This document shows positions 56,009-64,000 of a DNA stretch of 64,000 nucleotides, piece after piece. Source of the DNA: Candidatus Woesearchaeota archaeon CG_4_10_14_0_2_um_filter_33_13 (GTDB taxonomy: Archaea > Nanobdellota > Nanobdellia > Woesearchaeales > GW2011-AR9); assembly GCA_002792115.1 (NCBI GenBank), contig PFNQ01000013.1:7236-71235 (forward strand), read 5' to 3'. Position 1 is the stretch's first letter, and the number at the start of each line of letters is the position of its first letter. The position numbers and the translations under genes were made by a program. Under the pieces are notes generated by a model, which worked only from the letters and a program-made list of their open reading frames with translations, was not told where the DNA came from and made no database searches.

Positions 56009-56815
56009 ATGGAATCCACTTGGCAAATAACTCAAGAAACAAAAGTTTTACCGAAATTAAACAAACCCATTTTTATTGAAGGTTTACCTGGAATTGGAAA
56101 TGTTGGTAAGATTGCAGTTGATTATCTTGTTGAAGGGTTAAAAGCAAAGAGAATATATTCTTTTTTTTCTTACAAATTTCCCCATTCTGTTTTTGTTTCA
56201 GAAAAAAATTTAATAGAAATGCCCCGGATTGAAATTTTTTACAAAAAATCTACCGGCAAGGGAAGAGACTTTTTATTTTTAGTCGGGGACATTCAACCAA
56301 TTGATGAAGACAGTTGTTACTCTTTTTGTAATGAAATTTTAACTATCATAAAACAGTACAATTGTTCGGAGGTAATAACTACCGGCGGGATTGGTTTACA
56401 AACTATTCCAGATACCCCCAAAATATATTGTACTAGTAACGATGCTGAACTCTTAAAACAATATCACCAAAAAAGCAAGATTCTAGAAAAAGAAATATTT
56501 GGTGTAGTTGGTCCAATTGTTGGTGTTTCCGGAGTATTGTTGGGATTTGGTCAAAGGCAAGGAGTTAAAGGTGTTGCTTTACTAGCAGAGACTTATGGTC
56601 ATCCATTATATTTGGGAATAAAAGGGGCTAAAGAAATATTAAAAATCATTGATAAAAGATTTTCTTTAAAGATTAATCTGCAAAAAGTTGATAAAGATAT
56701 TCTTAGTTTGGAAAAAGAATTGTTAAAGAAGACTGCTGAGCTTTCCTCTGAGATATTGCATTCAACATCAGCTGGTGCAAAAGCAAGAGATAAAGATGTT
56801 AATTATATTGGTTAA
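56009..56815 (+). CDS. PAC2-family proteasome assembly chaperone homologue (PbaA/PbaB-like)
   Basis: IFIEGLPGIGNVGKIAVDYL N-terminal signature of archaeal PAC2 proteins. Confidence 0.7.
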   Translation: MESTWQITQETKVLPKLNKPIFIEGLPGIGNVGKIAVDYLVEGLKAKRIYSFFSYKFPHSVFVSEKNLIEMPRIEIFYKKSTGKGRDFLFLVGDIQPIDEDSCYSFCNEILTIIKQYNCSEVITTGGIGLQTIPDTPKIYCTSNDAELLKQYHQKSKILEKEIFGVVGPIVGVSGVLLGFGQRQGVKGVALLAETYGHPLYLGIKGAKEILKIIDKRFSLKINLQKVDKDILSLEKELLKKTAELSSEILHSTSAGAKARDKDVNYIG

Positions 56816-56954
56816 ATGCAATCCTACATTTTTTTAATTAAAACTCACACTTCTCAATTTAGCAAACTTAATGTATTTATTTGTTTTTTTAAGACGACAT
56901 TCTTCAAGTTAAGGTAACACAAGCTTTATAAATAAATATAATATACTTTAATCA

Positions 56955-58955
56955 ATGCCAAAAAAGAGGTTGGGATGTGGTTTATTTAGTTTTCTTCCTA
57001 TTAGCTCAGGCTCTGGGCGAAGCTCTAAAAGAGGGCAAATCACTGTTTTTATTATTCTGGGCATTTTAATGTTGTTGGCATTGGTTTTAGTTATCGCTTT
57101 AAAATCAGAAATTTTTGCTTTTAAAACGGATGAAATCGCTCCTACAGAAAAAGGCAAAGTTGAAAATTATATTGTTGCGTGTATGGATAGACTTGGAGAA
57201 GAAGCTTTATTTAAAATTGGTCTTCAAAGCGGATACATTGAAGTACCTACCCAAATTGCTAAAGATAATCAACAAAGTTTGAGACTTTCTCCTATGAATG
57301 TAGTTCCCTATTGGGCGGTTGGGCCAAATATCTTTGTTCCCTCATTACAAGAGATAAAAGAACGGATTGATCTTTACATGGAAGAAAATATGCGCGATTG
57401 TCTTTTCTCTACTCAAGCTTTTACAGAACAATACGACCTAATCGAGAAAAGTGAAATTACTGCAGATACAAATATTGCTGAGAATCAAGTTATCTTTAAT
57501 ATTCATTGGGACATTGAAGTTAATAATAAAGCAGGAGAAGTTGTTAGTGAAGTTATCAACCATATTACTGAGTCTCCTGTGAAATTAAAGAAAGTTTATA
57601 CTATGGCAGTAAAGATTCTTGAGAATGAGATGCAATCATTAAAGGTGGAAGATATTACTCAAGACCTTATTGCTTTAGAACATCCTAAAGTGCCGGTAGC
57701 TGGAATTGAATTAAGATGTAGTAAAAAAACATGGGATGTTAAAGAAGCGGAGAGTACTTTGCTAAAGATGTTACGTATCAACATCCGAGAATTAAAAATT
57801 AAAGGGACCGATTTTTTAGAGTTTCCTGAAGAATTACCTTACTATGATAATCATTATGTTTGGGACATTGGAGAAGATATTTCTGAAAGAAAAGTTAGTG
57901 TAATGTTTAACTTTGATGAGACTTATCCACATGTTTTTGCAGTTACTCCTTTATCCGGCACAAAAATGGCTAGTTCTCAATTAGGTGGTACTGATCAAAT
58001 TTCTTTCTTATGTATTCAAACGTGGAAATTTACTTACGATTTGGTTTACCCGGTACTGGTAAGAGTGAGGGATGAAACAACCAATTATGAATTTAATATG
58101 GCCTTTACAGTTCATTTAATTCAGAACACTCCTAACAAAGGCGATCCTGTCGCTAGAGCTTCGTTGCAATTTCCTACAATAAATGCTGATGGGTATTGTA
58201 CTTCTGCTAATGTTCCAATGAGTATAAAAACTTATGAACTAGTAGAAAATGGTGAGGGAGTAAGTTATAACGAAGATTTGGGAGATGTTAACCTCAGCTT
58301 TACTTGTTTAAGATACAAATGTGACTTGGGCCAAAGTAAATACGACTACGCAGGTTTGGGTTTCTCTGGAATAAGTTTGAATGTGCCGTATTGTGTTGGA
58401 GGAATTTTAAGGGGAACTAAACCAGGATATAAAGAATCTTGGCAGAGAGTAGTTACAACGGCCGGCAAGGAAGCCGAGTTAAGCTTGACTCCAGTTATTA
58501 ATATTCCTCTCAATAAAATTAAGGTGGTTAAACATGATTTTACTGAAGTTAATGGAGTTAAAAATATTGGTCCTGCTCAAGAAGGTGCAGTTGAGGAGAC
58601 TACATTAATCAAACTTAAGTTTATTAAATCAAATCTTACCGAAACAAATTTAGAACATGAGGCTACTGTTGCAGTATCAAAACAGATGGACAAAAAAATA
58701 TTTGAAGAAGAGAAATTAGAATTGTTGGCTAAAGCCGATTTTACCTATTATTTGGAAGTGATGGTTTTCAGAGAAGAAGAGTTTATTGGAGGATATAAAG
58801 GTGAAGTAACCTTACCTTGGAGCCAATTAAAAGATGCTAGTCAATTAATCTTCCACATTTTATCCAGTAAAACAACTAATGAGGAAGAAATGTTTGCATT
58901 TATGACAAACATTGAAGAGCTGAGCAAAGAAATACCTGCTTTAGAAATAAAATAA
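56955..58955 (+). CDS. Membrane-anchored (signal-anchor) 666-aa protein of unknown function
   Basis: Basic N-term then TM (ITVFIILGILMLLALVLVIAL), large extracytoplasmic domain; TATA-like 25 nt upstream; 31 bp before giant ORF. Confidence 0.5.
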   Translation: MPKKRLGCGLFSFLPISSGSGRSSKRGQITVFIILGILMLLALVLVIALKSEIFAFKTDEIAPTEKGKVENYIVACMDRLGEEALFKIGLQSGYIEVPTQIAKDNQQSLRLSPMNVVPYWAVGPNIFVPSLQEIKERIDLYMEENMRDCLFSTQAFTEQYDLIEKSEITADTNIAENQVIFNIHWDIEVNNKAGEVVSEVINHITESPVKLKKVYTMAVKILENEMQSLKVEDITQDLIALEHPKVPVAGIELRCSKKTWDVKEAESTLLKMLRINIRELKIKGTDFLEFPEELPYYDNHYVWDIGEDISERKVSVMFNFDETYPHVFAVTPLSGTKMASSQLGGTDQISFLCIQTWKFTYDLVYPVLVRVRDETTNYEFNMAFTVHLIQNTPNKGDPVARASLQFPTINADGYCTSANVPMSIKTYELVENGEGVSYNEDLGDVNLSFTCLRYKCDLGQSKYDYAGLGFSGISLNVPYCVGGILRGTKPGYKESWQRVVTTAGKEAELSLTPVINIPLNKIKVVKHDFTEVNGVKNIGPAQEGAVEETTLIKLKFIKSNLTETNLEHEATVAVSKQMDKKIFEEEKLELLAKADFTYYLEVMVFREEEFIGGYKGEVTLPWSQLKDASQLIFHILSSKTTNEEEMFAFMTNIEELSKEIPALEIK

Positions 58956-58986
58956 TTTCAGTTTAAGAAATGATGTATCATTAAAC

Positions 58987-64000: not shown

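Follow-up and report, generated by a model that had tools for sequence, protein, structure and literature searches.

A conserved gene pair of Woesearchaeales encoding a prepilin-type protein and a giant cysteine-rich protein with a Sec-type signal

A stretch of 64,000 nucleotides (nt) from contig PFNQ01000013.1 of Candidatus Woesearchaeota archaeon CG_4_10_14_0_2_um_filter_33_13 (the window, whose positions are counted from its first letter) was analysed, and two adjoining genes near its end, here called A and B, were found to form a module that is real, conserved and made of uncharacterised proteins. Gene A (56955-58955, plus strand, ATG start) encodes a protein of 666 amino acids (aa) with a class III, that is prepilin-type, signal, and gene B (from 58987, plus strand) a giant Cys-rich protein with a Sec-type signal. 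Our tentative reading, to which we give a little less than an even chance, is that A and B, in the window's clade joined by a third protein C, build a pilin-anchored surface complex that attaches to and breaches the cell wall of a partner cell.

The source assembly comprises 1.33 Mb and is 92% complete, which agrees with the small-genome archaeon proposed in an initial annotation of this DNA; it is of the DPANN type, and the homologues are labelled Woesearchaeota or Nanoarchaeota. The same annotation had read gene B as a frame running from 58987 to the end of the window. The list of open reading frames (ORFs) confirms these 1,671 codons, and reading the contig beyond the window completes the gene: the stop lies at window-equivalent position 65343, and the full protein has 2,118 aa, 233 kDa and a pI of 4.75. 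The spacing of 31 nt between A and B was likewise given correctly, and the spacer has no oligo-T run. Contigs from four other groundwater metagenome runs cover window positions 56900-64000 with few substitutions and zero insertions or deletions, one of them spanning the A/B junction, and they show no frameshift within 58987-64000. Given these contigs and the more than 212 long homologues described below, gene B is neither a chance frame nor an assembly artefact. Two small ORFs inside it are taken as shadow ORFs of the long gene:

59319-59813, minus strand: shadow ORF of 164 aa inside gene B, on the opposite strand
62279-62533, plus strand: shadow ORF of 84 aa inside gene B, in another frame

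More than 212 homologues of B, of 1,400-2,400 aa and 38-68% identity, align along the whole core of the protein; they are named hypothetical or FN3-domain proteins (Woesearchaeota/Nanoarchaeota), and some carry a transglutaminase-like core (PF01841). A single-sequence search detected B in 109 of the 201 sampled genomes of the order, nearly always in frames of at least 1,000 aa where the contig allows, and a profile search in 35 of 36 genomes of the window's own family; across the phylum, 134 of 301 sampled genomes were positive. Profile positions 640-990, the helical centre of the protein, match in many other families of the order, and weak matches (E values of 1e-6 to 1e-12, positions 660-800) were obtained in other orders of the class, in frames of 1,400-3,200 aa. 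Gene order was inspected at nine loci: that of the window, those of three relatives whose B shares 64, 40 and 39% identity, and five more distant ones, of which three come from further families of the order and two from other orders of the class. A lies directly before B at all nine, and at each of the five more distant ones (5/5) the gene in this position is the best A homologue. The earlier suggestion that the two genes form one, probably co-transcribed, module is supported: A and B open an operon of closely spaced genes and stay next to each other class-wide.

Protein A was divided based on its ORF, the family alignment and an AlphaFold2 (AF2) model as follows:

56955-58955, plus strand: gene A, encoding a protein with a class III (prepilin-type) signal and a large body outside the cell
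56955-57035, plus strand: residues 1-27, charged leader ending in K-R-G, with a predicted prepilin-peptidase cut before Q28
57036-57113, plus strand: residues 28-53, hydrophobic alpha-helix of the pilin alpha-1N type (Kyte-Doolittle scale; helix 26-53 in the AF2 model)
58203-58499, plus strand: residues 417-515, transthyretin/CnaB/carboxypeptidase-regulatory-like beta-sandwich, with more beta-sandwiches up to residue 666

The hallmarks of a class III signal, a leader ending in [KR]-G, a Q at +1 and a hydrophobic helix directly after the cut site, are all present. In the window's protein the leader has 27 residues and the signal reads KRG/QITVF (the slash marks the predicted cut), the consensus of the family is MxxxKRGQITxFII, and Q28 and F32 occur in at least 90% of members (81-sequence alignment). 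The helix 28-53, in which residues 31-49 average 3.43 on the Kyte-Doolittle scale, would, judging from the sequence, act as a membrane anchor or filament core. The AF2 model (mean predicted local distance difference test, pLDDT, of 90.4) shows an alpha/beta head followed by transthyretin/CnaB-like beta-sandwiches. The initial annotation had described a signal-anchored protein with no recognisable domain; the anchoring N-terminal helix stands, but the signal is of class III and domains are recognisable in the model. An exhaustive HMMER search returned 3,137 cluster representatives of the A family at E<=1e-3 and 1,143 at E<=1e-10, which are 'hypothetical' where named and whose recorded taxa are nearly all archaeal (Nanobdellota, Woesearchaeota). 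No Pfam, NCBIfam or PHROG family matched A, and profile searches of the A and B alignments against the PDB sequences gave nothing below an E value of 0.028. At the structural level, domains of A superpose on domains of SlaB (PDB 8qox), and a match to teneurin (8fia) is limited to the transthyretin-like domain. In the ESM Atlas, the feature search with A found solely its own unnamed archaeal clusters, and the shape search solely its own family and generic CarboxypepD_reg proteins.

Protein B combines a variable, sequon-bearing N-terminal arm with a conserved Cys-rich core, and its parts within the window are:

58987-59076, plus strand: residues 1-30, Sec-type signal peptide with basic n-region, hydrophobic core and a putative cleavage site ISA/LE
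59086-59334, plus strand: residues 34-116, FN3-like domain (Pfam matches below the cut-off)
59467-59778, plus strand: residues 161-264, acidic Asn/Thr-rich linker (alignment occupancy 0.2-0.6, identity 0.07-0.19)
59779-60546, plus strand: residues 265-520, conserved Cys-free region, presumably Ig-like (conservation 0.4-0.6)
60547-64000, plus strand: residues 521-1671 of the conserved Cys-rich core, which extends to about residue 1920 (55-sequence alignment)
61087-61275, plus strand: residues 701-763, predicted single helix of 63 residues holding segment 728-746 (model helix 187-249, pLDDT ~77-84)
62188-62247, plus strand: residues 1068-1087, CSGTPDCVSGNSGQCINNKC, lineage-specific Cys-rich insertion whose four Cys occur in ~20% of homologues
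62539-63066, plus strand: residues 1185-1360, helical centre with Cys staples, conserved more widely than any other part of B (profile matches, model)
63250-63267, plus strand: residues 1422-1427, GCDCIH, with invariant C1423 and C1425 within a C-x4-C-x-C knot

In the signal region, residues 13-31 average 2.71 on the Kyte-Doolittle scale, and an NLP...A motif is conserved in the family. The FN3-like domain noted earlier at the N-terminus is a real match that stays below the Pfam cut-offs: Pur_ac_phosph_N reaches 25.6-28.5 bits against a cut-off of 30 (E 2e-6 to 2e-5) and fn3 15.4-15.9 bits against 25 (E ~0.02). PF16656 is precomputed on most B homologues, and some are named FN3 proteins by their sources. 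The linker 161-264 carries seven of the 14 N-X-S/T sequons of the protein. In the region 265-520 a weak Glucodextran_B match lies at 351-385, and Big_6 and Glucodextran_B are precomputed on homologues. All 56 Cys of B lie past residue 521, and 37 of them are kept in at least 85% of homologues (same 55-sequence alignment). As a side observation, the composition is sharply split: residues 161-520 hold 12 of the 14 sequons and zero Cys, and residues 521-2118 hold all 56 Cys and two sequons. The Cys-rich region of the initial annotation is therefore present with all its landmarks, CSGTPDCVSGNSGQCINNKC, GCDCIH and the GGGGG run (residues 1534-1538), with the correction that CSGTPDCVSGNSGQCINNKC does not belong to the conserved part. 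Beyond the window, a borderline SH3b domain (PF08239, SH3_3; 27.8 bits against a cut-off of 27, E 3e-6) was found at residues 2060-2107. SH3b domains bind peptidoglycan in bacterial wall hydrolases. The C-terminus of B varies across the family, and the SH3b end is found only in the window's near lineage.

B had also been called a membrane protein with internal hydrophobic helices. After the signal, a single segment (728-746, in the predicted 63-residue helix) peaks at a Kyte-Doolittle mean of 1.45, under the usual transmembrane level, and no segment of the C-terminal 1,300 residues exceeds that value, so B has no C-terminal transmembrane anchor. Since this only internal hydrophobic segment is below transmembrane grade, the label of membrane protein is unsupported; that of a giant Cys-rich extracellular protein stands, with no convincing transmembrane segment besides the Sec signal. 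The core was modelled with AF2 from a 53-sequence alignment (residues 515-1660, 1,146 residues in several domains; pLDDT 73.5, predicted TM score 0.62). The model shows, in order, a cadherin/Ig-like sandwich, the 63-residue helix, mixed and beta regions, a helical centre at ~1209-1355 and further beta domains. Within the helical centre, a Gly/Phe/Ala-rich loop (B 1280-1301) is conserved in sequence yet modelled at pLDDT 26-46, and the low-pLDDT stretch covers model positions 735-779. The core matched nothing in Pfam, NCBIfam or PHROG. Foldseek gave no match at E<=1e-3 in PDB and BFVD, and the ESM Atlas shape search reached query-normalised TM scores of at most 0.19; as these fold searches used one large multi-domain model, they mean that no match was found and are not proof of a new fold. 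ESM Atlas feature searches with B 530-1750 and 1150-1640 found nothing. The fusexin/HAP2 and teneurin folds, named earlier as leads, thus receive no Foldseek support in PDB and BFVD with this 1,146-residue query. The teneurin reading gains no support from Pfam either, where full-length B (2,118 aa) matches neither RHS nor YD families at E<=0.1, and the only teneurin hit is to the transthyretin-like domain of A. Pfam scans of A and B found no cohesin-like or dockerin-like module. The proposal of an undescribed system is borne out in that neither protein falls in any described family in the Pfam, NCBIfam, PHROG and PDB searches, and our literature searches found no description of either.

The surroundings of the pair add the following features:

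56009-56815, plus strand: PAC2-family gene (proteasome assembly chaperone-like), directly upstream of A
56924-56934, plus strand: TATA-box-like element TTTATAAATA, read directly, 21 nt before the ATG of gene A
65345-69207 and beyond (window-equivalent, outside the window), plus strand: genes C, D and following

The four loci of the window's clade all have the PAC2 gene immediately before A. The 139-nt spacer between PAC2 and A holds oligo-T runs between the PAC2 stop and the TATA-like box, from which we infer that PAC2 is a separate transcription unit and A the first gene of its own; TTTATAAATA would be an archaeal promoter giving a near-leaderless transcript of gene A. Downstream, genes A, B, C, D, E and F follow each other on a single strand. 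The B/C and C/D junctions both read stop-A-ATG, and operon genes of the relatives often overlap by 4 nt. C (201 aa) is a second prepilin-type protein with the signal KG/AIAIE and a hydrophobic run visible in the alignment; most of its 34 homologues read M-N-K-K-G/K-V-A-I-E, a G(-1)/E(+5) signature, and it has no PHROG match. D (879 aa), the first of the secreted enzymes with which the operon goes on in the window's family, has an SGNH-type domain common to the D genes of the relatives (E 1e-24) and a metallophosphoesterase domain. E (207 aa) has a TSP3-like acidic repeat and a C-terminal hydrophobic helix, and a run of X in its translation indicates unresolved bases in the contig. F (at least 240 aa, DUF218) runs off the end of the contig. 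Three relatives retain the order PAC2-A-B-C-D; their D genes carry Polysacc_deac_1 with 3D and Metallophos, DUF2272, or SLT, and in one of them a later operon gene carries GDSL, DUF218 and Peptidase_M15_4.

In the five more distant genomes, the gene after B encodes a polytopic membrane protein of 246-297 aa, weakly conserved, without Pfam match and with the motifs FQG.NW and YF.F..Y, which a weak five-sequence profile did not find in the window's genome. Based on this gene order, the class-wide ancestral unit consists of A-B and a small membrane protein; the polytopic protein may be the ancestral third component, and it is the window's clade that has added the pilin-like C, the enzymes directed at the wall and SH3b.

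Elsewhere in the genome, an A24 prepilin peptidase (PF01478, E 1e-14, contig C28) and three T2SSE-type ATPases (PF00437, contigs C20, C39 and C41) were identified, none of them beside the operon. In two distant genomes, a T2SSE-type ATPase in an unusually long frame (~770-780 aa) was observed 18-19 kb upstream of A (G098:C1:643514 and G288:C1:359108), and contig C39 of the window's genome has a similar frame of 769 aa; this may be conserved loose synteny or coincidence. A search of the 92%-complete genome turned up neither a penicillin-binding protein (PBP) transpeptidase nor a SEDS protein, so that murein-directed enzymes would act on walls other than the cell's own. A Mur_ligase_M match was considered as a sign of murein synthesis and rejected, since the same family matches archaeal control genomes. 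Searches of the genome for the known S-layer families PF05123 and PF07752 came back empty, and neither A nor B has an S-layer match in Pfam or NCBIfam; since S-layer proteins are heterogeneous, the missing match does not exclude such a role for A-B.

The pairing is a recurring theme in this genome, where two more loci combine a class III protein resembling A with giant secreted proteins rich in Cys. On contig C15 (8717-14494), the paralogue A' (774 aa, KKG/QVTVFIIVG, A-profile E 2e-72) is followed after 27 nt by B', a Sec-exported protein of 1,141 aa with a Big_3_3-like domain and 21 Cys. The B' family (~1,050-1,170 aa, Woesearchaeota) is without annotation, and B' has no PHROG match. On contig C57 (28506-44400), the third A-like class III protein of the genome (1,047 aa, 36 Cys) stands between two Sec proteins of 1,805 aa (63 Cys) and 2,101 aa (80 Cys). 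The partners of these other A-like proteins are not demonstrably homologous to B; for B', BLASTP gave an E value of 0.004 over 58 residues with four aligned Cys, and hhalign a probability of 3%. More generally, the genome holds 24 frames of at least 1,000 aa (maximum ~4,300 aa), which make up ~9% of its 1.33 Mb, and about half of them begin with Sec- or class III-like signals.

With regard to function, the closest known systems are the tip complexes of type IVa pili, composed of minor pilins and PilY1/PilC, as in Pseudomonas fimU-pilVWXY1E and three Myxococcus clusters. Like these, the module joins prepilin-signal proteins (A and C) and a large Sec-exported non-pilin (B) in one operon, comes in several paralogous sets per genome and has a presumed role in surface contact. 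Unlike PilY1, B is double the size and lacks the PilY1 beta-propeller, with no Pfam match and no propeller in the secondary structure or fold matches of the model (residues 515-1660). In addition, the operon has only one or two pilin-like genes, one of them with 666 aa, no assembly genes are nearby, and the organism is an archaeon. The SlaA/SlaB pair of Sulfolobales (PDB 8qox) is similar in having adjoining genes for a beta-sandwich-rich membrane-anchored protein and a very large secreted partner. However, SlaB has its anchor at the C-terminus and A in an N-terminal class III helix, the two systems are unrelated in sequence, B is, unlike SlaA, Cys-rich with a helical centre, and the operon continues with pilin-like and hydrolase genes. 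The giant proteins of the 'Archaeovorin' type in Omnitrophota have neighbouring genes for class III signal peptides and components like those of type II secretion systems and type IV pili (bioRxiv 10.1101/2023.11.21.568195). They resemble our case in ecological logic, with an extracellular giant beside small class III genes, SLT-like wall degradation and ultra-small host-dependent cells of groundwater type, but they are bacterial, exceed 10,000 aa and have their enzyme domains built in, whereas here no enzyme domain is recognisable in the giant and the enzymes are separate genes. Finally, large murein-transglycosylase proteins (fam00969) in Woese- and Pacearchaeota have been read as a hint of bacterial hosts, in a study that also defined 'Module 98', with 51 lineage-specific families mostly of unknown function (Castelle et al., PMC8204110). 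The taxa and the proposed contact with bacterial walls are the same, and the D genes of the relatives carry SLT, 3D or DUF2272. That work, in contrast, deals with an enzyme family, we found no annotation of A or B in it, and the window's D combines SGNH and Metallophos with a weak lysozyme-like signal.

On the basis of the observed signals, domain layout, conservation and gene context, the signal cleavage, the complex, its target and the single steps could be pictured as follows. A would probably be cut after KRG by the A24 peptidase of the genome, and its N-terminal helix would be held in the membrane or in a short type-IV-pilus-like stem, so that the alpha/beta head and the row of beta-sandwiches would be displayed outside the cell. 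B would be exported via Sec and lie wholly outside, with a glycosylatable FN3/linker/Ig-like arm, a disulfide-rich core of ~1,400 aa and, in this lineage, the SH3b domain. Together with C in the window's clade, A would anchor B and present it as the main contact device of the cell. The variable ends of B (glycosylated arm, SH3b) would bind the envelope of the partner, probably a peptidoglycan-walled bacterium, and in the window's clade co-expressed hydrolases would open its wall locally. Host attachment by B, as suggested in the initial annotation, is plausible. Several observations weigh against the breaching of a wall by a pilin-anchored complex. The link to peptidoglycan enzymes and to a pilin-like C exists only in the window's clade, and no hydrolase follows the polytopic membrane protein gene in the five distant genomes. 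In the window's own operon the lysozyme-like signal of D is weak (Glucosaminidase, E 0.064), and ~5% of the aligned homologues of B have residues at the SH3b, which is confined to the near lineage. Sequence and fold searches with the core of B give no clue to its activity. Moreover, no pilus ATPase or platform gene adjoins A-B in the window's genome and three others; with no assembly genes adjacent, the class III helix may be an anchor only and not part of a filament.

The main alternative, possible if doubtful, is that A and B constitute a two-component envelope of the S-layer type in the manner of SlaB/SlaA, with A as membrane-anchored stalk and B as outer canopy, and thus housekeeping architecture and no host-contact device. 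Such a role would suit the near-universal presence of the module in the window's family, with one copy found in the window's genome, the arrangement of anchor and giant partner in adjoining genes as in slaA/slaB, the lack of a known S-layer family among those searched in the genome, and the acidity and sequon-rich arm of B. High Cys content is unusual in S-layer proteins, so the 56 Cys of B (37 conserved) would be atypical. The anchor is moreover of class III, the genes are translationally coupled to a pilin-like gene and wall hydrolases, which would be needed in unlike amounts, other A-like/giant pairings exist in the same genome, and the resemblance to SlaB is a generic beta-sandwich match. 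Considering the SGNH, SLT, 3D, deacetylase, M15 peptidase and Metallophos domains in D and later genes, the SH3b of B, the transglutaminase-like core of some homologues and the groundwater source, the pair could also belong to an extracellular complex with which a free-living or loosely associated cell scavenges, and in which B, like a cellulosome scaffold, would hold wall debris (murein, teichoic acids) for the co-encoded enzymes. We regard this as unlikely, given that distant lineages keep A-B without the operon enzymes, that the Pfam scans revealed neither cohesin-like nor dockerin-like modules, and that the conserved core of B has no carbohydrate-binding or catalytic signature.

Cytoplasmic bridges are known from other DPANN-host pairs, and B could in principle be a fusogen or pore-former whose disulfide-stapled helical centre refolds into the partner membrane and opens such a bridge. 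Consistent with this are the 63-residue helix with its hydrophobic middle, the conserved but poorly modelled Gly/Phe/Ala-rich stretch 1280-1301 and the class-wide conservation of the helical centre. We nevertheless consider it very unlikely, as the PDB and BFVD searches linked its fold neither to fusogens of class I, II or III nor to pore-forming toxins, B lacks a C-terminal transmembrane anchor, and the hydrophobic stretch is of sub-transmembrane grade and modelled as buried in a helical bundle. A wider proposal, that A-B is the universal host-contact organelle of Woesearchaeales and Pacearchaeales and the core of B a new disulfide-stapled, spring-loaded domain for membrane insertion or fusion that, borne on a pilin-type stem, breaks open the partner's envelope, appears quite unlikely. 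An origin from a virus or mobile element (tail fibre, receptor-binding protein), for which the only point is that giant Ig-domain proteins are common in phage tails, is contradicted by the missing PHROG matches of A, B and C, the missing BFVD fold match at E<=1e-3, the stable chromosomal neighbourhood across genomes and the presence of the module in 35/36 genomes of the family; B as an artefact or pseudogene is contradicted by the intact frame in the four other groundwater runs, and both are extremely improbable.

Few uncultured archaea are as widespread as the Woesearchaeales and Pacearchaeales, and the module bears on how they touch, hold or feed on their partners and on whether these are bacterial. 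It provides a defined gene set for this question, consisting of a prepilin-type anchor and a 230-kDa Cys-rich protein, to which one large family adds a further pilin-like protein and enzymes directed at the wall, and it offers targets for antibodies, proteomics and cryo-electron tomography of the contact site. Should B prove to be an envelope protein instead, the cell wall of these archaea would have been identified; and if membrane insertion were true, the module would represent the long-sought protein basis of cytoplasmic bridging or feeding in DPANN archaea.

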